A stretch of 64,000 nt of DNA from a virus. Lineage: Duplodnaviria; Heunggongvirae; Uroviricota; Caudoviricetes. This document shows positions 50,877-64,000 of this stretch, piece after piece. The stretch lies in IMG/VR virus record IMGVR_UViG_2541047715_000004; one strand, 5' to 3'. Made by a program: the position numbers and the translations under genes. The notes beneath the pieces were generated by a model. It searched no databases and had not been told where the DNA came from. It was given only the letters and a program-made list of their open reading frames with translations. The first letter of the stretch is position 1; each line of letters starts with the position of its first letter.

Positions 50877-51290
50877 ATGGCAAGAGGTATGTATGTCTTA
50901 TGCGAAATTGAAGGTGTGCTGGCAAATGCCAGCCATCGTAAATCAGTATCTGACGCGGATGCAGGCCAGCTCATTGCCGGTGATGAACTCATTTTCCCCA
51001 CCAGCCGTATGTTGCGTGGTTTTGCTCGCTCAGGGGCTGAAGTGGTGCTTATCAGTAGCCGCTCTGAAACTCTTGAAGCGCCAACTAAACGATGGCTGAA
51101 AGATTTTGGCGTTGATTATGACTGGCTTCATCTTGTACCGAATGGCACCAGTTATGAGAAGCATATTAAGCGCACATTAGCGGAGCATAAAGGCGATCTG
51201 CTTATCGCTGCGCTGGTGCACGATCCTCGACTCCGTGCCGCTTTAGCCGACTCTCACCATCGACCGGTCATCTATGAGGTGAGCAAATGA
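50877..51290 (+). CDS. hypothetical protein (possible degenerate HAD-like fold)
   Basis: Start overlaps thyA stop; YVLCEIEGVL resembles HAD motif I without the Asp pair. Confidence 0.3.
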   Translation: MARGMYVLCEIEGVLANASHRKSVSDADAGQLIAGDELIFPTSRMLRGFARSGAEVVLISSRSETLEAPTKRWLKDFGVDYDWLHLVPNGTSYEKHIKRTLAEHKGDLLIAALVHDPRLRAALADSHHRPVIYEVSK

Positions 51291-51763
51291 AGATGATCGC
51301 TGCTGTTGGCCGTAACTATGAGATCGGCATAGCGAATGAACTCCCCTGGCGTTGTTCTACCGATCTGAAGCTATTTAAGAGACTCACCAAAAACGCCACT
51401 GTCGTTATGGGGCGTAAAACGATGGAAAGTCTCAAACGCCCTCTTCCAGAGCGTCATAACCTCGTTTTGACGCGCTCTCATGGCTTTGTACCAAATGGAT
51501 TCTACCCTGCTGGTGTGGATGATGTGTTGCGATTACCAGAGCCTGTGTGGGTGATTGGCGGGGAACAAATTTACTCGCTATTCATGCCGCATGTTGAAGA
51601 GATTTGGCTCTCCCACATCGGCGTTGATGTACCAAACGCCGATGCATTCTTCCCGGCAAGCATGATGCGTAACTTAGGCTTTGTGCCTGTTGAAACAGCT
51701 TATACCCAACGAGCCAGCGAGGAAGAGCCTGGCTTTTCGCAGATCGTATACAGAAGGTCGTAA
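51287..51763 (+). CDS. folA: dihydrofolate reductase
   Basis: MIAAVGRNYEIGIANELPW N-terminal motif and GRKT segment; 158 aa. Confidence 0.85.
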   Translation: MKMIAAVGRNYEIGIANELPWRCSTDLKLFKRLTKNATVVMGRKTMESLKRPLPERHNLVLTRSHGFVPNGFYPAGVDDVLRLPEPVWVIGGEQIYSLFMPHVEEIWLSHIGVDVPNADAFFPASMMRNLGFVPVETAYTQRASEEEPGFSQIVYRRS

Positions 51764-52407
51764 TGGATTACCGGATTGGGATCACTGGTGCTCAGGGCAG
51801 TGGGAAAACAACCCTGGCAAAATATATCGACAAACATTACGGAATCCCTTACGTGGATGCTGGTGTCGGAAGTTTGATGAGCCGCCTCGGTGTTCGAGTA
51901 GGTGAGTCTATGCCTCTATATGAGCGGCTTCAGATTCAAATGGAAATAGCAAAGCATATAGAGCTACTTACGCGTGGTGTTGAAGGCTTTGTTATCGATC
52001 GCACACCTGCTGATGTTATGGCCTACACGTTGGATTTGGTCGGCCATACCAATGAAGATCGATGTATTGAGTTAGCCCTCGATATCGAAAAGTTTTGCCA
52101 CAAAACTGCTATTTCAAACTTTAACGCCATTGCTGGCTTACGCCCGGGAGTCGCTCTCTCAGAGCGAGATTACTTGCGATCACAACGAGCATCATTAGAC
52201 CGTCTGTATGTCGCTCGTATTGATGCGTTGATGTGCGGGGAACTGACAAAAATTCACCTGCATCCGCAAAGGGGGGATCTGCAAACCTTCGTCGTTTCCA
52301 ACCGATATCGCACGGTTGAAGCAAGAGCCAGATCAGTGATGAGAATGCTAGATAACGCTGTAGAAAAGATAGAAAACCGGTTCTGTGGCCGAGTGACCGT
52401 TCATTAG
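51763..52407 (+). CDS. P-loop NTPase (putative nucleotide kinase)
   Basis: Walker A GAQGSGKTT near N-terminus; 214 aa. Confidence 0.45.
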   Translation: MDYRIGITGAQGSGKTTLAKYIDKHYGIPYVDAGVGSLMSRLGVRVGESMPLYERLQIQMEIAKHIELLTRGVEGFVIDRTPADVMAYTLDLVGHTNEDRCIELALDIEKFCHKTAISNFNAIAGLRPGVALSERDYLRSQRASLDRLYVARIDALMCGELTKIHLHPQRGDLQTFVVSNRYRTVEARARSVMRMLDNAVEKIENRFCGRVTVH

Positions 52408-54608: not shown

Positions 54609-55202
54609 ATGATTGCAGCCGAAAAAATCAAACAGCGAAAGCGCGACAACTCTCTTCGTGACCTCTGGAGAACACCTGACTGGCTGTTTTCTGCCATTCA
54701 ACGTTATCTTGGAGTGACATTTGATGTTGACGTTGCCTGCAACAAGGACAATGCGAAGCTGCCTAATTTCATAGGCGTTGAGCGTGATGCTTTGAAATCT
54801 GAATGGGGACAGCCAGGTACAATTGCCTTCCTCAATCCACCCTACTCCAAAATCTCCCCCTGGATTGATGCGGCTATACGTGAGCAGGCTCGCGGAGTTA
54901 CAACAGTGATGCTAATTCCTCAATCCCTCGATACAAAGTGGTATGAGCGTGCAACAGAGTGTGCGAATGAGACGATTATTCTGTCTGGTGGCCGCGTAGC
55001 GTTTGTCGAGCCTGACGTCAATTTGGGTCAGGTAGAAGTAAACATCAACCCCGGTGGCAGTATGCTCGTTGTTTTTCGAGGATTCTGTCAGGACGCTGGG
55101 CACTCTATAAGCAAGATCCCTTTGGACGTCATGAAAAGTCTGGGAGGGTATGATCCTGCGAATGTGATCAGGAAAAAAAGACAATCAAAGAAGGCTGCTT
55201 AG
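54609..55202 (+). CDS. DNA N6-adenine methyltransferase, orphan phage Dam type
   Basis: Catalytic NPPY motif (FLNPPYSKISPW); 197 aa; no adjacent nuclease gene. Confidence 0.7.
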   Translation: MIAAEKIKQRKRDNSLRDLWRTPDWLFSAIQRYLGVTFDVDVACNKDNAKLPNFIGVERDALKSEWGQPGTIAFLNPPYSKISPWIDAAIREQARGVTTVMLIPQSLDTKWYERATECANETIILSGGRVAFVEPDVNLGQVEVNINPGGSMLVVFRGFCQDAGHSISKIPLDVMKSLGGYDPANVIRKKRQSKKAA

Positions 55203-55220
55203 TTTGTTCTGGCGTCTGTA

Positions 55221-55281
55221 ATTAGCCTGCTTCTGTATATATAAATAACTACATATTAATTATTAATATACGGAAGCAGGC
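55221..55281. repeat. long GC-stem / AT-loop hairpin element, copy 2
   Basis: GCCTGCTTCTGTATATATAAATA...TATACGGAAGCAGGC; near-identical arms to copy at 7745..7803. Confidence 0.6.
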
Positions 55282-55364
55282 TGTTTTATATCAGAGACTC
55301 CCAGACCTGAACACCACTACAGAATCCACTAGAACCCCTTCCCAGACGCTTTAAAATCGATTTT

Positions 55365-55619
55365 ATGAACCACTTTAAGGAAACCAACATGTCATACCCG
55401 ACTAATGTCGTTGCGCTCGTAGAGAGCGATTTTCTGGCCCAGGCTCGTGAAATGATGAAAGATCGTGAGCAGGCTTTCAACTTGTACGAATGGGCAATTA
55501 AGTGCTTGCATCTTGGGGAGCATCGCGAACTTGTTGAACAGCTTTTAGGTGAGTTGATCAACGAGGTGTTTGCCTTGAATGTTCAACTACATGGTCGAAA
55601 AAATAATCAATCGAAATGA
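55365..55619 (+). CDS. hypothetical protein
   Basis: 84 aa ORF. Confidence 0.35.
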   Translation: MNHFKETNMSYPTNVVALVESDFLAQAREMMKDREQAFNLYEWAIKCLHLGEHRELVEQLLGELINEVFALNVQLHGRKNNQSK

Positions 55620-56205
55620 TAGATAAGTACAAACTATTCATAAAGTGAATTGTAAGTGCTAAGATCTGATAGTTTCCAGTCGTAGACTGGAGGCTCGACC
55701 TGATGGGTGGGGGTAAGCGTCACTGGCGTCAGGTTTAAAAAAGCTCACTACCAGCGTAGAACCGGCACCGTTTAGGGGTTGGGGAAGGGGGAACCAAAGT
55801 GAGCAGAGACAAGGGTCACTTTATGATTGTCGAGTCTGGGGTGTTTCGAGAGGTTGAATCCAGTACTCCCCTTCATAAAGTGTGGGAAGATCTCGGTTCT
55901 GGGGTGCTGTCATCCATAACTTCCCAAGCCTAAGCTGGCAGTAGACTTAGGTCATAACTTTTCAGGTTATGAAACGACCAGGTTGGTGAGGAAATTTTGT
56001 ACTCACCTCCCTGGGAGAGTATTACCTGAAAAGACAACCTCTCACTTCGTTCGAGGTGAACTTCACTCACTTCGTTCGTTCAGTTCAGGTTTATAAAAAC
56101 CTGTTCTGGGAAGTAATTTGTTTATTTTAATAATTATTAACACGCACGCGTGTGCGCACGCGCGAGGAAAAAAAAATCGGCGCGGCGCTTGATTCAGGAG
56201 TTTAT

Positions 56206-56796
56206 ATGACGACGAAGACACCAGCCCGATCGCAAGCAAAAACTCGCAAAAATGACAAAAACAAAAATTCTCCCCGCACCAATTCCACAACGCCTGTCGT
56301 AGAGTTCAATCCCCAGCTTAAAACCGTGAAAATCTTCAGTGATGGCTCTTGCCTTAAAAATCCGGGTGGCCCGGGCGGTTACGGTATAGTTCTCCAGTAT
56401 GGTGGTGAGGAACGCGAGTTCTCAGATGGTTTTCATAGCACCACCAATAACCGCATGGAGATGATGGGGGCACTTATCGGGCTGGAGCGTTTGAAATATC
56501 CATGCAACGTTATTTTGTACTCTGATAGCCAGTATCTGAAAAACGGCATGACACAGTGGATGAAATGGTGGAAACGCAATGGATGGATGACTTCTGACAA
56601 AAAACCGGTAAAGAATGTTGATCTGTGGAAGCGTCTGGATGAGGCCGCAAGTCGACATAATGTTCGCTGGAAGTGGGTTAAAGGTCACGCCGGGCATCGT
56701 GAAAATGAAATATGTGATCGACTCGCGAAGATCGCAGCTTTTTCAGCAGCAGATATGCCTCACAAGAAAGATATTGGTTTTGTTTATAACAAGTAG
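56206..56796 (+). CDS. rnhA: ribonuclease HI with basic N-terminal extension
   Basis: KIFSDGSC...GGPGGYG and C-terminal HAGHxxNExxDxLA RNase HI motifs; about 40-aa Lys/Thr/Asn-rich N-terminal extension; start ambiguous (table ORF from 56152). Confidence 0.8.
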
Positions 56797-56944
56797 TAAG
56801 TAAGTGTTTACCTATCATTTTAAATCATGTATCTTATCAGCGTCAGGATGACAATGTGTCGGTAAGACACAGTTCCAGGATGGAACGAGAAAGGCGGCTG
56901 GCGATCGCCAGCCGCAACTCTTTCTGACACTGGATGGAGTCCAC

Positions 56945-57439
56945 ATGGCACGTCAAACCTATTTCACTTCTGCAACTAAACGTCCTCGTTCTTTACGTCA
57001 AATTTTGGCCGAATTGTTTAGCGGTCGTGTTATGTCACGTCTTGATGAACTAGAGACTACCGTTCGGTTGCTGAATGAACGTTTAGATAATCAAGCGTCA
57101 GTTGTTGCGAACGTGGGGGCGATTGTTGCCTCTGGTTCTTCACGCGAAGCGAAAAGTACACGGCCTTTAGTGAAGGAGAAAAACAACAAGGACAGTTCGA
57201 ATGGAAAATTTTCAAAGAAAGAGGCTGAAACCAATGGCCTACGTTCTCATTATAGTTTCACTGGCGACGGTAGCCGTTCCAGCCGGCCAGAGCCTTTTGA
57301 TGCCGGGTTCATCCATCACCACACCTCCGTCGACGACAATTACCACCACTCCAGTAGAGCGTCCTGTCACTCTGGATGGGATGACGGTGGATGCGATACC
57401 TCAAGTTCATCCAGTTACTCAGGATCATGTTGTGACTAA
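56945..57439 (+). CDS. hypothetical protein (model uncertain; overlaps alternative-frame ORF 57201..57452)
   Basis: 164 aa ORF; C-terminal half low-complexity Ser/His-rich; alternative frame encodes signal-peptide-like Thr/Pro-rich protein. Confidence 0.3.
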   Translation: MARQTYFTSATKRPRSLRQILAELFSGRVMSRLDELETTVRLLNERLDNQASVVANVGAIVASGSSREAKSTRPLVKEKNNKDSSNGKFSKKEAETNGLRSHYSFTGDGSRSSRPEPFDAGFIHHHTSVDDNYHHSSRASCHSGWDDGGCDTSSSSSYSGSCCD

Positions 57440-57448
57440 GGTGGTTGT

Positions 57449-57637
57449 ATGAACTGGCTTTCAAATCACTTTGGGAAAATTTGGCTGGCAATTCTGGCTC
57501 TCATGGCCGCCGGTTGGGTATCCAACATTATAAAACTCGTTTGCTCAGGTGATCTCCAGTTTCAGGCTGGCATGACCTTGGCTCGTGTAGTTGGGATTTT
57601 TATTTTTCCAGTCGGTTCGGTACTTGGTTATTTCTGA
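57449..57637 (+). CDS. small membrane protein
   Basis: 62 aa, two hydrophobic segments. Confidence 0.35.
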   Translation: MNWLSNHFGKIWLAILALMAAGWVSNIIKLVCSGDLQFQAGMTLARVVGIFIFPVGSVLGYF

Positions 57638-57730
57638 CGGTTGTTAGTGCATATGCATTGACCGTCTTTGCGTAAGCAATTTATGTAACCAGAAAACAAT
57701 TTGTTTTGACAAATAGCAAAAGGAAAACAC

Positions 57731-58156
57731 ATGTTAGGTTTCTTCAAAAAGAAAACTCGTAAAGCTGTTATCGAAGTCAAAAAAATGGAGAACCGTGATG
57801 CGGTTGAAGCCACCGTGTGGGGCGGGTACATGATCTCCTATGCCAACGGTACATGCGATGCAAAAGAAATTTCCATTCTTGAGAAAACAATTGCAGCTCT
57901 GCCTGCATTTTCTCCTTTTGCTGGTGAGATTGCCCAGATGAGCGCCAATATCCGCGCTCAATACGAAGCCTCACCGCGCCGTGCTAATGCCCAGGCTTTA
58001 CGTGAGCTGGCGGATGTGGCCGGGACTGATGATGCAGTAGATGTACTGTGTCTGTGCCTTGATATTGCCGACCAGGACGGCATTGATGAACCAGAAGAGC
58101 AGGCGCTGAAAAAGATCGCCCAGGCGCTTCAGTTGTCACTGGATGCTTATCTCTAA
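57731..58156 (+). CDS. TerB-like domain protein (putative)
   Basis: Helical pattern with acidic cluster DQDGIDEPEEQAL reminiscent of TerB family; an unlisted 52-aa membrane ORF (about 58156..58314) overlaps its stop. Confidence 0.4.
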   Translation: MLGFFKKKTRKAVIEVKKMENRDAVEATVWGGYMISYANGTCDAKEISILEKTIAALPAFSPFAGEIAQMSANIRAQYEASPRRANAQALRELADVAGTDDAVDVLCLCLDIADQDGIDEPEEQALKKIAQALQLSLDAYL

Positions 58157-58323
58157 TGCTTGAGAGATTCCGGCTTGTGACCGTCATTGCTCTTCTGGTG
58201 ATAGCGGTGTTGGTGGATTTTACGGGAAAGATGATGTCTGTCATTTCTGATGGCGTCCTCATTGGTCTGGCGATCTACTTCGCTTATCCGCTAGTCCGTA
58301 AAGCAACGTGTTAATGACAAGGG

Positions 58324-58352
58324 CCAAATGGCCCTTGTGTTTCGTTGACCGA
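58324..58352 (+). terminator. intrinsic terminator hairpin
   Basis: CAAGGGCC-AAAT-GGCCCTTG followed by TGTTTCGTT. Confidence 0.65.
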
Positions 58353-58453
58353 AATAGAGAGTTTGCACCTTTACGTTTAGCTTGCTCCCCTTTTATGCCA
58401 CATCACAATAAAGCCAATAAGAAAACAACTTGTTTAAGCATTAGGAAAAACAC

Positions 58454-59023
58454 ATGTGCAAGAAATGCAAAGCGATAGCTGATGAACAAAACGCCTTATT
58501 CGAAGAAATGGATGCTAATGAACTGGTCAAAATGTTAGCCATTCTTCGAGGAATAGAAGACGTTTCCATATTTGAGAGAGTGGTTACAGCACTTAATTTT
58601 GAGTCCACCTTTGAAGAGCCAACTCAGGTTGTAGCTTTAGCACATCATTTCGGTGTTCATTATCTTGCTGAAAAAGAGCGCGCTGATAAGTTGCAGGCGA
58701 CTTTGGATATGGTGAGCGAGACTCAACGAACTGATGACACTAACAAGAGTGAGGCGATTATTGCCAGCAAAGATCGTGAAATTGCTGGGCTTAAATCCTC
58801 TCTAACGATGTTGATGTCTGCGTTCAATCTTATGTCTTCTCAGGCGGGTTATAAAATGCCATCACTAAACAGCGATGATCCGATGGCCGTTCGTCAGCTT
58901 TTGGGAGCAATGGCCGACCAACTCGACGACACAAAGAGTCGCCTTGAAGACATGATGCGTGAGTTAAGCCATCGACATAACCTCGCAACACAACCACACA
59001 AAGTCTTTCAAAGCTCTAATTGA
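58454..59023 (+). CDS. hypothetical coiled-coil protein
   Basis: 189 aa ORF; preceded by AAACAACTTGTTT upstream motif. Confidence 0.45.
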   Translation: MCKKCKAIADEQNALFEEMDANELVKMLAILRGIEDVSIFERVVTALNFESTFEEPTQVVALAHHFGVHYLAEKERADKLQATLDMVSETQRTDDTNKSEAIIASKDREIAGLKSSLTMLMSAFNLMSSQAGYKMPSLNSDDPMAVRQLLGAMADQLDDTKSRLEDMMRELSHRHNLATQPHKVFQSSN

Positions 59024-59077
59024 TCTGATATGGCCGCATGATCGGCCATATTGTGTTGATAAAAACAAGGGTGAAAA

Positions 59078-59359
59078 ATGGCATACGGTACAGGGATTTA
59101 CAACAATAAAGGAATTAACGTTACTGGCTTCCTTACACCTATTTTTTTTCTTGATCGATTTACGGCGTCATCAGGCTCTAAGACGTACTCTAATCCGCCA
59201 CCGGGTAAATCACTACATGCCGTGTGGTCATTAATGCCTCTTAACAACGACAACTACATCAATTTACCTGTTCCAAATGTTACTATTAATGGAAATACGG
59301 TTAGTTGGTCAAATTTATATACGGGGCTTGGTTCTTACATATACACATACTGGGGATAA
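59078..59359 (+). CDS. hypothetical protein, paralog of 1343..1597
   Basis: 93 aa; shared FLDxFTxSxGSKTY...TVSWS pattern. Confidence 0.45.
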   Translation: MAYGTGIYNNKGINVTGFLTPIFFLDRFTASSGSKTYSNPPPGKSLHAVWSLMPLNNDNYINLPVPNVTINGNTVSWSNLYTGLGSYIYTYWG

Positions 59360-59361
59360 TT

Positions 59362-59976
59362 ATGTTCGGGATGTCAATTACTCAATCAGATGGAAGTTTG
59401 TGGATGAGTCCTGAATTTACTCCGCAAAATCTGATTAATAAAGGGACAATGTCTACATCTAAAGGTTCTGTTTTTCAAACATCAATCCCATCAAACAAAT
59501 CATGCTTTTTCTTCATAAAAAGCAGCAATAAGGCGAACATGATGTTTATTCATGAACATAGTAACGGATACAATGCTCTCAGATTGCATCAGGTAAATGG
59601 TAGCCCCGGAACAATAACAGTTTATGCTTTTTCTGATATGGTGTTACCACATTCTGGCTATGGCATTGCCATGTATAACAGCGCAGGCGCAATGGTGTAT
59701 CACGGTGAGATGATGCCCCTTGATGCAAAACTTATCACTATTACTGACCCACAATTTACAATAGATATGGGGTATCCGTGCGCAGTAATGCCTGCTATGG
59801 TTGGGGTTTATAACTATAGACGAACCGATTACGACAGACCTGTCTATGTAACTATGACCGGTGCAACTGGAAACCAAGTATATAACGGTCAATGGTATTC
59901 CGGTAATGTCACATGGGATATTAAGAAGATTTATACAAACAAAATCCTGGTTATAAATACCTCAAAGTATGATTAG
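59362..59976 (+). CDS. hypothetical protein, paralog of 1691..2206
   Basis: Start at ATG overlapping upstream stop (TAATTATG); shared SDGxxWMSP...CFF N-terminal pattern with region 1597..1715. Confidence 0.45.
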   Translation: MFGMSITQSDGSLWMSPEFTPQNLINKGTMSTSKGSVFQTSIPSNKSCFFFIKSSNKANMMFIHEHSNGYNALRLHQVNGSPGTITVYAFSDMVLPHSGYGIAMYNSAGAMVYHGEMMPLDAKLITITDPQFTIDMGYPCAVMPAMVGVYNYRRTDYDRPVYVTMTGATGNQVYNGQWYSGNVTWDIKKIYTNKILVINTSKYD

Positions 59977-60079
59977 CAAATACCTTTATTTAAAGGATTG
60001 CCTGTTAATTTCTATTTAGCACCTTTTCATTTTTGAAATAATTGCACTATTAAACAAATCTTTTCTTAATGGTGCAATT

Positions 60080-60556
60080 ATGAATACAGCTCTTTCCATC
60101 ATCGACGATACCAACTCAAACACTGCTATCGATTATCGTCAGGAAATGAACGTCATCCACGAAATCGTAGCCGAGTGCGAGAAAGAGATCGCCTTCATGT
60201 ATCAGGTTCACGACTTCGTTTATGGCGACGAACGCCACAACATGATTAATCGCCTGCTGCAACTGAACCATCGACCAGATGAAGAACGCTCACGTTTGAA
60301 TCGAGCTTGGCTGGATAAAGTCGATCTGGAATGGGTGAAACAGAATATTTGGGCCGAGTACTGGAGGAAGGTCACGGATATGACTAACGTTTTGCTGATC
60401 ATGCCAGCTTCCCGTCGCGACGAGTGGCGTGAGCAGTTTATAGAGGGCAAACAGGAAGTCATCAAAACTGACAGAACCGGCTACCAGATGAAGGTTAAAG
60501 AGTTCGTTGGTGTACCTGAGTTCAAAGTGGATACAAACATCCCTACGATGGTTTGA
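60080..60556 (+). CDS. hypothetical protein convergent with hsdR
   Basis: 158 aa ORF. Confidence 0.4.
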   Translation: MNTALSIIDDTNSNTAIDYRQEMNVIHEIVAECEKEIAFMYQVHDFVYGDERHNMINRLLQLNHRPDEERSRLNRAWLDKVDLEWVKQNIWAEYWRKVTDMTNVLLIMPASRRDEWREQFIEGKQEVIKTDRTGYQMKVKEFVGVPEFKVDTNIPTMV

Positions 60557-60614
60557 TCTGACAGCTATCTGCAATTTGCACAGATGTCTGCCAGATCTGG
60601 TTCAGATTAATACA

Positions 60615-63600
60615 CTATATCTGCCCACCTACTCCTTTGAACTTTTCAATAAACGTGACGATTTTCTGGAAAACGGTCTGTTTTTTCGTTTTATATTGCG
60701 GGTTTAACGGACTAAGTTTTGGTAATGTCTCGTTTAATTCTGTGCCATTTTCGGTGGCGTATTCGCGTTTTAAAGACGTGCGAATATAGCGTTTCGCCGC
60801 CTCTTCATTGAGATTTTCTTCTTTTATCAATGCTTCTGCTTCACGTTGCTGTTCGCGTTGAGCAAACGTAAAGAATGCCTCAATGATACTGGCTTTGTCT
60901 GGTAAATCATCCAGGTTCGTTTGCTGAATAAAATCGACCACCAGGCCCTCTTTCGCCCGGTTCCCCAGGCTTGAACGAATTAAGCGTTTGACCTCTTCGA
61001 TCATTTCGCCCTTGCCTTTATTTTGTCTGTTGTGTTCGAAAATCAGTCCAAGGATATAATCCAGGTTTATTTCCTGAGACTTCAGCAAATCGACCTCAAA
61101 AACTACGTCATCCCAGTCAGTGGTTGATTTCTCTTTTTTCTCAGCTTCTTTCTCACGGCGCTGCCAGTCGCGAATATCGTTATAGGCAGAACGATAATCC
61201 TGAATCTTGCGTTCAGCAGGGAGACGAATTGTTTGCAATTCAGCGAACTTTTCATCATCCACATAATGTTCTGCTTTGAATTTTTCTACCGCAACAGGAT
61301 CGCTAAGATCGATTTGTTGCAGGGCTTTCAGCGTGGCAAATTCATCATAGTTTTGCAGGATGTTCTCGGCACGCAGGTATTCACCAAACAGTTTTACGAA
61401 GTCTTTCTTCTCTTTTTCACTTTCAATACTGGCAGGGTCAGGGAACCGTTGTTCCAGTTCTGAAACTACTGCCATAAAGCCGCGTTTAGCTTCACCAGTG
61501 GCAGCATCTGTAAAGCCTTCCATATACTCAGCATAACTCTTTTCTAACACCACATTTTTAGTATTTTTATCACCAAACAGCGTTATGGCATCAATGGTTG
61601 AGCGTTCCAGATCCCGAAAAGTGACGATGTTACCGAAGGTTTTAGTAGCGTCATAAATGCGGTTGGTACGGGAGAATGCCTGCATCAGGCCGTGAAAACG
61701 CAAGTTTTTATCGACGAATAGCGTGTTCAATGTTGGAGCGTCGAAGCCGGTTAAAAACATCCCAACGACAATTAACAGATCGATATCCTGATTTTTAACC
61801 CGTTGGGCTAAATCACGATAGTAGTTCTGAAAACCGTTACTGTCGGTGCTGAAGTTAGTTTTAAAATAGCTGTTATACTCACGAATTGCAGCGTCAAGAA
61901 ACTCTTTAGCACTGCTGTCCATTGCGCTGGTATCAAAAGTTTCATCGGAAATTTCACCAATGGCATTTTGTTCTTCATTGGCGGCAAAGGAGAAGATTGT
62001 TGCAACACGCAGCGGTTTATAGGTAGCCGATTTATTAGCTGCTTCCTCTTGTAACCGTTTAAACGTCGCGTAATAGGCTTTCGCGGCATCCACGCTACTC
62101 ACTGCCAGCATGGCATTAAAGCCTTTGGAACCTGGGAAAGTACGGTGGGTCTTCTGGCGGAAGTTATTCAGAATATATTGCGTAATTTCCTGTATACGCA
62201 TGGGATGAAGAAATGCCTGCTGATTTTCAGCCGCACTCAGTTTTTTCTCGTCGGTTTCTGTCTCTAAAGATTTAAACTGTGGCCGCACATCGTTGTAGTC
62301 CACCTTGAATTTGAGCACTTTTTCATCACGAATCGCATCGGTAATTACATACGAATGCAATTCACGACCAAATACGCTGGCGGTCGTTTCTGAGCCTAAG
62401 GCGTTTTCCGGGAAAATAGGTGTGCCGGTAAAACCAAACTGATAATAGCGTTTGAATTTCTTCTTCAGGTTTTTCTGCGCTTCTCCAAACTGGCTGCGGT
62501 GACATTCATCAAATATAAACACCACTTGCTGATTGTATACAGGCAGGTCGCTTTCTGCTTTCATCAGGTTATTAAGTTTCTGAATAGTGGTGACGATAAT
62601 TTTGTTATCGTCCTTATCCAGATTGCGTTTAAGACCTGCGGTATTTTCCGAGCCGTTGACGCTGTCTGGCGAAAAACGCTTATATTCATTCATGGTCTGG
62701 TAATCGAGGTCTTTCCTGTCGACCACGAAGAAGACTTTATCAATAAAGTCCAGCTCTGTTGCCAGACGCGCGGCTTTAAAGCTGGTGAGGGTTTTACCTG
62801 AACCGGTAGTGTGCCAGATATACCCACCGCTTTCCGGTTTTGACCAGTTCTTCGCTGTAAAGGAACTCTTAATTTTCCACAGAATGCGCTCAGTGGCGGC
62901 AATCTGGTACGGTCGCATCACCAGTAGCGTTTGGCTAACATCGAATACGCTGTAGTTCACTAAGACATTAAGCAGGGTATGTTTCTGGAAAAAGGTGGCG
63001 GTAAAGTCTTTGAGGTCTTTAATCAGCGTGTTGTCTGATTTCGCCCAATTCATGGTGAAGTCAAAACTGTTTTTATCGCGCTTTGTCGTGTTGGCAAAGT
63101 AACGGGTATCGGTGCCGTTGGAAATGACAAACAGTTGCAGATACTTAAACAGAGAATTTTCGCTGTTAAAACTCTCTTTGCTGTAACGATGTATCTGGTT
63201 AAAGGCCTCACGAATCGCCACGCCGCGCTTTTTCAGTTCGATTTGTACCAGCGGTAAGCCATTAACCAGGATCGTGACGTCATAACGGTTAGCATGAGAA
63301 CCCGTCTGTTCAAACTGCTGGATAATCTGCACCTTGTTGCGCATGAGATTCTTTTTATCTATCAAATAGATGTTCTCAAGACGCTCGTCATCAAAAATAA
63401 AGTCGCAAATATAGTCGATATGGATTTTACGGGTCTTATCCAGGATGCCATCGCTCGGGTTATCCAGATACTGCTCCGTGAAACGCCGCCATTCGCTGTC
63501 ATTAAACACCACACCATTGAGGTTCTGAAGCTGTTCCCGAACGTTGGCCAGCATCGCCGACTGAGATTTTACGGAAATAAATTCATAGCCCTGATTCCGC

Positions 63601-63731
63601 AGATCCTGAATCAGTTCACGTTCCAGGTCCGATTCGCTCTGGTAGCTGTCGCCTGTTTGCTCGGCTTTGATGTACTTATCAAGAACGATAAAGTTATTGG
63701 ATTCAGCAATGGTGTGTGTCTGATGAGTCAT
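60615..63731 (-). CDS. hsdR: type I restriction enzyme R subunit (HsdR)
   Basis: 1038 aa; N-terminal PD-(D/E)xK-like nuclease segment ([19 protein letters not shown]), helicase motif I TTGSGKT, motif II FDECHRS. Confidence 0.85.
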
Positions 63732-63852
63732 AGCGCATCCTTTGTGCCGTCTGGCAAGGGCCGGAAGGGCTTTAAGGGCGACTTCCGGCGTGTAAAAAAT
63801 AGTCTCTATATAGACCGGATGTTAAGGTGATCCGGTCGGTAGCAATGGTCAA

Positions 63853-64000
63853 TTAGTTACTGATAGTTTCAGGTTTGGGAAAACTGAACAGTAAATCACG
63901 ATAGTACTCGTATTGTTTCTGGCGCAACTCGATTTCACGCGGAAGACCTTCGGTGATGGAATTGGTCAAAGCATCAAATTTATCCAGTAATTTCACTATT
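63853..64000 (-). CDS. hsdS: type I restriction specificity subunit (HsdS), 3-prime end only
   Basis: Minus-strand translation of window end gives ...[44 protein letters not shown]-stop, typical HsdS C-terminal helix; gene continues beyond window. Confidence 0.65.

Follow-up and report, generated by a model that had tools for sequence, protein, structure and literature searches.

The right end of the 64,000-nt window (the whole stretch of viral DNA that was analysed, IMG/VR record IMGVR_UViG_2541047715_000004) very probably belongs to a complete, apparently functional type IC hsdM-hsdS-hsdR cassette that is encoded on the minus strand and carried as cargo by an SSU5/pHCM2-like phage-plasmid, with the 158-codon open reading frame (ORF) that faces hsdR being the stump of a methyltransferase gene. 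The locus is a real, ordinary and already known EcoR124-family type I restriction-modification gene set, and its discovery value is small: among type IC systems the EcoR124 family has been studied most, down to crystal and cryo-EM structures, and dozens of public plasmid records already contain identical, annotated copies of the locus. The analysis is of corrective use in that a gene previously labelled "unknown convergent gene" can be relabelled as a truncated methyltransferase pseudogene. The coordinates of the features are listed in Table 1.

Table 1 Features at the right end of the window, listed from the window end inwards
Feature	Position	Strand	Basis or remark
hsdS 3′ end, last 48 codons and stop; conserved type IC C-terminal region, runs off the window	63853..64000	minus	translation
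hsdS-hsdR intergenic region, 121 nt, with two 8-bp GC-rich hairpins and a promoter-like site	63732..63852	minus	
hsdR, type IC (EcoR124I-type) restriction subunit, intact, 1038 aa	60615..63731	minus	Pfam, PDB 2w00_A alignment, motifs
hsdR 3′ flank, left end of the hsd cassette, imperfect hairpin	60554..60614	minus	
Junction-proximal remnant patch	60517..60553	plus	common to all four truncated copies compared
5′ remnant, 158 codons, of the 561-aa backbone DUF4942 / N6-adenine DNA methyltransferase gene; pseudogene	60080..60556	plus	

Sequence comparison identifies the window as an SSU5/pHCM2-like phage-plasmid of E. coli, the backbone being recognised from matches to SSU5, to Cyrano and to non-mobilizable E. 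coli plasmids of about 110 kb that carry RepB, DnaE, NrdAB, tRNAs and related genes. Positions 59000-64000 are 100% identical to eleven public E. coli plasmid records, one of which (NZ_CP010144.1) was inspected in detail, and over the last 25 kb of the window the best overall matches are 99.4-99.7%, not 100%.

Pfam analysis of the hsdR product gave matches to HSDR_N (1e-48), SWI2_SNF2/ResIII (6e-55 / 3e-43), T1R_D3-like (9e-59) and EcoR124_C (7e-72), scores that are far beyond chance. The protein aligned with EcoR124I HsdR (PDB 2w00) over residues 1-1038 with 2274 bits, and 16 differences were seen within the first 1010 residues (~98% identity over those 1010 shown); the similarity is therefore full length and includes the family-specific C-terminal domain (EcoR124_C), as expected of a type IC HsdR. 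All nuclease residues are present (D151, E165 and K167 of the PD-(D/E)xK motif; Q179 and Y183 of the QxxxY motif), as are all superfamily-2 motor motifs (GSGKT at 310, DECH at 408, TGTP at 435 and QAFSRTNR at 684). The first-pass annotation had described a 1038-aa HsdR with nuclease and helicase motifs and had guessed from its length that it was of the EcoR124I type (type IC); coordinates, Pfam matches and motifs agree with the description, and the end-to-end alignment with 2w00 bears out the guess.

The minus strand from 63999 to 63853 reads as 48 codons followed by a stop, and 44 of these 48 residues, read on the 100% identical plasmid copy, are identical to the C-terminus of EcoR124 HsdS in PDB 7bst. 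As hsdM and 88% of hsdS lie outside the window, their integrity was read from identical or near-identical plasmids. Directly past the point that corresponds to the window end, NZ_CP010144.1 carries an intact 415-aa hsdS and an intact 518-aa hsdM, so that extension via this plasmid revealed neither a missing hsdM nor a decayed locus. Three earlier proposals, namely an HsdS C-terminus in the last 148 nt of the minus strand, a 121-nt gap between hsdS and hsdR, and an hsdM beyond the window, were all confirmed, the last on NZ_CP010144.1. The HsdM of this plasmid aligned over its whole length to EcoR124 HsdM (1146 bits), and its HsdS contains the type IC N-terminal, central (LTAELTAEL) and C-terminal conserved regions, the central part being seen outside the window only. 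Both target-recognition domains (TRDs) of this HsdS differ from those of EcoR124I, and the hsdS alleles found behind one and the same junction vary (415, 377 and 425 aa). Combining hsdS-121 nt-hsdR in the window with hsdM upstream in NZ_CP010144.1 gives the gene order hsdM-hsdS-gap-hsdR. The order hsdM-hsdS-hsdR is typical of type IC systems.

It is improbable that the locus in this molecule is an inactive remnant, with hsdM or hsdS disrupted beyond the window or HsdR silenced, such that only methylation takes place or nothing is expressed. The reading draws on the position of hsdM and most of hsdS beyond the window, on the frameshifts seen in the neighbouring rnhA and theta genes of some relatives, and on a few otherwise identical records without an annotated S-subunit CDS: in the PLSDB table this CDS is missing for some records with the same 5 kb (H9, H11, H20 and H22), and hsdS may therefore be disrupted in some copies. 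Against it, the hsdR gene of the window is of full length and has lost none of its catalytic motifs, the five phage-plasmid copies inspected (L001/L006, L008, L011 and partial L012) all have an intact hsdR as well, and hsdS and hsdM are intact wherever they are covered among these copies. In addition, the one inspected member of the eleven plasmid records that are 100% identical to the window tail has an intact locus.

The 121-nt gap between hsdS and hsdR is a likely place for the separate promoter that hsdR has in type IC systems, judging from a promoter-like site on the minus strand (TTAACA-18-TATTTT at 63825..63796) that matches the consensus at 9 of 12 positions; promoter-like sites in the gap region are fewer than in shuffled sequences. 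The gap folds at -37.9 kcal/mol (z = -3.8) and is ~95% conserved relative to the cassettes of P1-like phages and of E2348/69. A search of the 121-nt gap for an ORF (prrC) found none. This result bears on the proposal that the cassette is an EcoprrI-like type IC system with a PrrC anticodon nuclease acting by abortive infection, which we consider extremely unlikely. Restriction-modification and PrrC systems have been reported on SSU5-group phage-plasmids of E. coli and Shigella (survey preprint 10.1101/2025.09.12.675607), PrrC-type systems have also been reported on P1-group phage-plasmids, and phage phi456 has two additional genes between hsdS and hsdM. However, hsdM and hsdS overlap by 4 nt in NZ_CP010144.1 with nothing inserted, and the gene map of the window and its identical relative has no embedded prrC, on which ground the EcoprrI/PrrC reading was rejected for both.

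On the other side of hsdR, the convergent ORF of the plus strand aligns to residues 1-157 of 561-aa proteins of Cyrano (97% identity), SSU5 (89%) and pECAZ155_2 (94%), in all of which the 561-aa methyltransferase gene, with its NPPY motif, is intact. The first-pass annotation had placed this ORF correctly, converging on hsdR, and had found it to be without a recognisable motif; this holds for Pfam, which gave no match to the 158-aa ORF, but not for PHROGs, in which it matches phrog_6263 'DNA methyltransferase' (2e-68, profile positions 1-150 of 548), nor for DNA comparison, and it is these two that reveal its origin. Residues 158-561 are missing from the remnant: DUF4942 (PF13708) occupies aa 140-295 of the full-length protein, of which only ~18 residues are left, and the SAM-binding (LEPxAGRGDL, ~aa 426-435) and NPPY (489-492) motifs are absent. 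PGAP/RefSeq labels the remnant a pseudogene ('incomplete; missing C-terminus'), and the copy on p.CT29-P1 has an internal stop at codon 80, with both a frameshift and an internal stop flagged by PGAP. A protein homologue search that used the 158-aa ORF as query yielded only 32 proteins, all short or partial and none of them a 561-aa relative, a result that is not a length census and only hints that many unequal fragments exist; database fragments of this N-terminus range from 87 to 262 aa, some of them on ~110-kb contigs.

The ORF had also been suggested to be an accessory or regulatory partner of the restriction system, for instance a retained N-terminal domain that was recruited to regulate the system or to counter restriction. 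A functional partner of this kind is very improbable, and the suggestion was not upheld. Of the four plasmid copies with this junction that were examined, three (L001, L008 and L012) keep the ORF open over 158 codons, as does the window, so that a 158-aa N-terminal fragment may still be expressed; phrog_16000 is a PHROG family of exactly 158-aa length, and the break lies near the start of DUF4942 (aa 140), so that a whole N-terminal module might have been kept. However, the ORF is 97% identical to the 5′ end of a methyltransferase gene whose catalytic part is gone, its stop codon is made by the cassette edge, and the p.CT29-P1 copy is interrupted. The ORF adjoins hsdR in only one junction, in 48 of 1429 matching plasmids; in the other plasmids and the chromosomes with hsdR, the match begins at the hsdR stop codon or only 35 nt beyond it, and EcoR124-type cassettes are found in chromosomes, other plasmids and P1-like phages without the ORF. 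We know of no type I system that needs such a fourth subunit. By sequence comparison the 158-aa ORF is thus a pseudogene stump cut off by the arrival of the cassette, and not a partner of the restriction system.

Junction mapping assigned the sequence through 60553 to the backbone and that from 60554 to the cassette, and the first three bases of the hsdR 3′ flank, TGA, form the stop codon of the remnant ORF. This boundary is a clean marker for tracking the cassette across phage-plasmids, P1-like phages and chromosomes. The E2348/69 chromosome has the same sequence 3′ of hsdR, apart from a 19-nt insertion in the window copy, and the idea that the 61-nt spacer 60554-60614 is a sequence of unknown origin was rejected, as it consists of the native hsdR 3′ flank plus this insertion. 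Among 5426 complete E. coli genomes the full 61-nt flank was found only on 53 plasmids and a matching 35-nt hsdR flank in 319 chromosomes; plasmid matches to hsdR end at the hsdR stop codon. The hairpin in the flank may act as an hsdR terminator or stabilise the mRNA; a stretch of 111 nt around it (60530-60640) folds at -25.5 kcal/mol (z = -2.4). A terminator scan between the convergent genes found no canonical terminator, the hairpin at 60555-60597 being without a T-run. When 55000-64000 was scanned against Rfam at E<=1, three chance matches below threshold appeared; they all lie upstream of 58601, and the locus itself had none.

On the backbone side of the junction, the remnant patch is ~25% diverged from every intact allele compared. 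Across alignment columns 437-474, truncated copies agree with one another at 34-37 of 37 positions and with full-length alleles at only 26-30 of 37, and upstream of the patch each truncated copy matches a different backbone allele. The patch presumably represents the backbone allele that first received the cassette. The flank is mosaic, with recombination breakpoints that differ between copies. The flanks of the 6.76-kb insert were searched for IS ends and for direct or inverted repeats, which brought up only short, chance-level repeats, and transposition is therefore not supported.

The insert comprises the hsd cassette and a pol III theta-like gene and stands in place of 5.4 kb of backbone, the lost portion being the 3′ 1.2 kb of the orphan N6-adenine methyltransferase gene and six small Ea22/Ead-like genes. 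The same cassette adjoins an integrase in the E2348/69 chromosome, is flanked by pap/pmgS and phd-doc in two P1-like phages, phi456 and vB_EcoM-673R5, and is also present in E. coli chromosomes and other plasmids. We infer the direction and mechanism of transfer from these comparisons: a single insertion event appears most likely, after which the cassette would have spread among diverged SSU5-like backbones through recombination between homologous flanks, for which the remnant would have provided the left arm. A broader and rather doubtful suggestion is that the stretch from the methyltransferase gene to the S24-peptidase (humD-like) gene is a hot spot of cargo exchange, where defence cassettes are swapped by homologous recombination and the stump is kept as the left homology arm; if this were true, a type IC cassette common to P1-like phages and chromosomal islands would mean that phage-plasmids shuttle type I specificities. 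In a weaker variant, the retained 158-aa N-terminal module may be expressed and have acquired a role of its own.

The predicted function follows from analogy with EcoR124I. Two HsdM and one HsdS would assemble into a methyltransferase and mark a bipartite target, the choice of which lies with the two variable HsdS domains. The spacer helix has two TAEL repeats; the role of such repeats has been described (PMC3874165). With HsdR added, the complex would bind unmethylated targets, the ATP-driven motor (GSGKT, DECH) would pull the DNA, and the N-terminal nuclease (D151/E165/K167) would cut it, so that the lysogen would be protected from other phages and plasmids. hsdR is probably driven by its own promoter in the 121-nt gap.

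Several known systems can be compared with the locus. The remnant ORF occupies the same backbone position as SSU5_095 / CYRAN_90, the 561-aa DUF4942 methyltransferase of phrog_6263, with 89-97% identity to its first 157 residues. The cassettes of E2348/69 (NZ_LT827011.1), phi456 and vB_EcoM-673R5 share ~95% DNA identity with that of the window over hsdR, the gap, the hsdS ends and hsdM, and have the same limits, namely the hsdR 3′ flank on one side and a point ~105 bp upstream of hsdM on the other. They differ from it in the variable domains of hsdS and in the DNA on either side, and the 19-nt insertion in the hairpin after hsdR distinguishes the window copy. In vB_EcoM-673R5 both hsdR and hsdM are fragmented, unlike the hsdR of the window, and phi456 has its two extra genes between hsdS and hsdM, where NZ_CP010144.1 has nothing inserted. 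A close resemblance is also seen to EcoR124I / EcoR124II of plasmid R124 (PDB 2w00, 7bst), whose HsdR has the same 1038 aa, ~98% identity, the same motifs and EcoR124_C, and EcoR124I shares the two TAEL repeats in HsdS, as seen in the identical plasmid, and the order hsdM-hsdS-gap-hsdR. EcoR124 is carried by a conjugative IncF plasmid, whereas the carrier here is an SSU5-like phage-plasmid, and since both HsdS TRDs are unrelated to those of EcoR124I, the recognition sequence should not be the EcoR124I target GAA(N6)RTCG. The original criteria for the type IC family were subunit complementation and antibody cross-reactivity (PMC3874165); at the sequence level, HsdR similarity, catalytic motifs, HsdS conserved regions and gene order all place the cassette in the type IC (EcoR124) family.

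The 3′ end of hsdS, the 1038-aa hsdR, the convergent 158-aa ORF and the 121-nt gap between hsdS and hsdR were all recovered where the first-pass annotation had placed them (table). Pfam analysis of HsdR identified HSDR_N, SWI2_SNF2/ResIII, T1R_D3-like and EcoR124_C domains (E-values 1e-48 to 7e-72), and comparison with the crystal structure of EcoR124I HsdR (PDB 2w00 and others) aligned residues 1-1038 with a score of 2274 bits; among the 1010 residues that the alignment displays, 16 are substituted (~98% identity). The nuclease residues D151, E165 and K167 and the QxxxY motif (Q179, Y183) are all conserved, as are the motor motifs Walker A GSGKT (310), the DECH box (408), TGTP (435) and QAFSRTNR (684). 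The domains, the end-to-end EcoR124I match and the motifs bear out the type IC identity that had been suggested from the length of the protein, and the window locus is classed as type IC by all sequence-based criteria of membership; classically, the family is delimited by complementation and antibody cross-reaction.

The window ends inside hsdS; for hsdM and the greater part of hsdS the sequence was taken from relatives, chiefly plasmid A of E. coli D4 (NZ_CP010144.1; locus L001, whose coordinates become window positions on adding 49999). The expectation that hsdM lies beyond the window holds in these closest relatives, in which the locus is intact, rather than absent or decayed. In D4 plasmid A hsdM (518 aa) and hsdS (415 aa) overlap by 4 nt, and HsdM scored 1146 bits against EcoR124 HsdM. 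HsdS of D4 plasmid A has the N-terminal, central and C-terminal conserved regions of type IC, the central one reading …LTAELTAEL… with two TAEL repeats, whereas neither variable domain is related to its EcoR124I counterpart. The gap between hsdS and hsdR contains two 8-bp GC-rich hairpins (GACCGGAT…ATCCGGTC and GCCGGAAG…CTTCCGGC; fold z = -3.8), and its sole promoter-like site overlaps the first of these; the gap is probably the site of a separate hsdR promoter, and the overlap may mean that hsdR expression is regulated. No prrC was present on the gene maps of the window and the D4 plasmid A locus, and an Rfam scan matched no family within the locus.

Coordinates of features at the hsd end of the window
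Feature	Position	Strand	Remarks
phrog_557 'outer membrane protein' gene	within 59078-59976		93 aa
phrog_425 'membrane associated protein' gene	within 59078-59976		~204-223 aa
Convergent ORF	60080..60556	+	158 aa, ORF list; truncated methyltransferase
hsdR 3′ flank	60554-60614	-	alignment to E2348/69 chromosomal copy
hsdR	60615..63731	-	1038 aa, ORF list
hsdS-hsdR gap	63732-63852	-	121 nt, up to hsdR start at 63731
hsdS 3′ end	63999..63853	-	48 codons, stop ending at 63853

The convergent ORF had been described as lacking any recognisable motif, which is correct for Pfam, as no domain was found in that search, but not for phrog_6263 "DNA methyltransferase", of which the ORF matches profile positions 1-150 of 548, nor for DNA comparison with the SSU5-like backbones of phages SSU5 and Cyrano and plasmid pECAZ155_2. 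At the equivalent position these carry a 1686-bp gene, the 561-aa product of which is annotated as "DNA methyltransferase" or "DUF4942 domain-containing protein", and the ORF corresponds to residues 1-157 of this protein (97% identity to Cyrano, 89% to SSU5 and 94% to pECAZ155_2). The full-length methyltransferase has DUF4942 at aa 140-295, LEPxAGRGDL near 426-435 and NPPY near 489-492; both motifs and nearly the whole of DUF4942 are missing from the ORF. The copies of the ORF in D4 plasmid A and strain 873.10 are annotated by the RefSeq pipeline as pseudogenes ("incomplete; missing C-terminus"), and the one in p.CT29-P1 as frameshifted with an internal stop; a TAA was confirmed at codon 80 of the p.CT29-P1 copy. 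On this evidence the ORF is the stump of a DUF4942 methyltransferase gene, and not the accessory or regulatory partner previously suggested. Used as a query against proteins, the stump yielded just 32 short sequences and no full-length relative, a result unusable as a census. At 60038-60081 lies a 21-nt inverted repeat (ATAATTGCACTATTAAACAAA / TTTTCTTAATGGTGCAATTAT; arms 86% complementary and 2 nt apart) whose end falls on the ATG of the stump, a possible operator or terminator for the backbone gene.

Homology to the Cyrano, SSU5 and pECAZ155_2 backbones stops at window position 60553, and in most hsdR-carrying plasmids the match begins no earlier than the hsdR stop codon (60615). That the intervening 61 nt are orphan sequence was ruled out by an E. 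coli genome search and direct alignment. Among 5426 complete E. coli genomes, the full 61 nt occur in 53 plasmids only, and the last 35 nt in 319 chromosomes. In E2348/69 these 35 nt directly follow the hsdR (1038 aa) of a chromosomal hsdMSR set that adjoins a site-specific integrase; over the full spacer, 60554-60614, the sole difference is a 19-nt insertion in the window, CAATTTGCACAGATGTCTG, which lengthens a hairpin stem and looks like an imperfect local duplication. The spacer is thus the native 3′ flank of hsdR, and the cassette therefore starts at 60554, with its first three bases, TGA, as the stop codon that closes the stump. On the right, homology to the cassettes of P1-like phages stops ~105 bp upstream of hsdM, and backbone homology resumes just before an S24-peptidase gene, with a pol III theta-like gene in between. 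Overall, 6.76 kb (L001 10555-17314) stand in place of 5.4 kb of pECAZ155_2-type backbone, with loss of the 3′ part of the methyltransferase gene and six Ea22/Ead-like small genes. No IS elements or flanking repeats were found around the insert.

Window 59000-64000 is 100% identical in eleven plasmid records of ~101-198 kb and is covered to at least 80% by 36; the last 25 kb of the window are 99.4-99.7% identical to such plasmids. The matching plasmids are non-mobilizable E. coli replicons of ~110 kb, collinear with phages SSU5 and Cyrano and carrying RepB, DnaE, NrdAB, ThyA, DHFR, tRNAs, phage Dam and similar genes, which places the carrier, as judged from gene content and order, in the SSU5/pHCM2 group of phage-plasmids. 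The phage-type DHFR of a near-identical plasmid (L001 1290-1766, corresponding to window ~51289-51765) bears the RefSeq name 'trimethoprim-resistant dihydrofolate reductase DfrA51'. A phage Dam-type N6-adenine methyltransferase and a TerB/TciA-like, DUF3927/TciB-like pair resembling P1 tciA-tciB lie at 54609-55202 and 57731-58314, and the backbone retains the Dam-type enzyme (PF05869, 2e-38) as a second methyltransferase although its DUF4942 methyltransferase is destroyed. The RNase HI gene (56152-56796) is an open 214-codon ORF in the window (GTG start; Pfam RNase_H 2e-45); the copies of p.CT29-P1 and of the near-identical D4 plasmid A carry frameshift flags. Two low-GC (~0.38) moron-like genes, phrog_557 and phrog_425, share ~78% DNA identity with siphoviruses JenP1, JenP2 and BRET; Cyrano and D4 plasmid A have the pair, which pECAZ155_2 and SSU5 lack, and this patchy presence marks a second variable spot immediately next to the hsd insertion.

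Immediately before the junction, 37 nt are common to all four truncated copies compared (34-37 of 37 positions agree), versus 26-30 identical positions with any intact allele compared. Upstream of this patch, the window resembles Cyrano, 873.10 resembles pECAZ155_2 and CT29 resembles the SSU5 allele, with allele switch points that differ between copies. On the simplest reading, the cassette would have entered a diverged backbone once, and later moves from one backbone to another would have gone by homologous recombination, for which the stump would serve as left arm. In the P1-like phages phi456 and vB_EcoM-673R5, pap/pmgS and phd-doc flank a ~95% identical cassette; this region of the P1 map is that of hot-lxr-humD. 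The theta (P1 hot-like) gene beside the S24-peptidase (humD-like) gene (L001 17013-17264, and L008 and L011 from other phage-plasmid copies) was seen at that position only in hsd-bearing phage-plasmids; Cyrano and pECAZ155_2 lack it, and in p.CT29-P1 it carries a frameshift. The theta gene and the position of the cassette in the two P1-like phages hint at exchange between two phage-plasmid groups. In phi456 (L005 11409-12676), hsdS and hsdM of this type IC cassette are separated by two extra genes, one of ~326 aa annotated 'putative baseplate hub protein' and a 96-aa ORF, which may represent a defence or abortive-infection gene embedded there. Behind the common junction hsdS encodes 415, 377 or 425 aa, reflecting TRD shuffling, as expected for type I systems (PMC3874165).

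Loci identical to that of the window are already public and annotated, and a 2025 survey preprint reports that E. coli and Shigella phage-plasmids of the SSU5 group carry RM and PrrC systems (10.1101/2025.09.12.675607). The finding is real but ordinary, and the only corrections gained concern what the convergent ORF is and where exactly the cassette boundary falls; activity, promoter use and transfer history are what we infer for the window's system. In EcoR124I-type systems, M2S1 methylates a bipartite target and R2M2S1 translocates and cuts unmodified DNA, and establishment in a new host depends on ClpXP-independent restriction alleviation (PMC3874165). By homology with EcoR124I, M2S1 of the window's system would likewise methylate, and R2M2S1 would translocate and cut.
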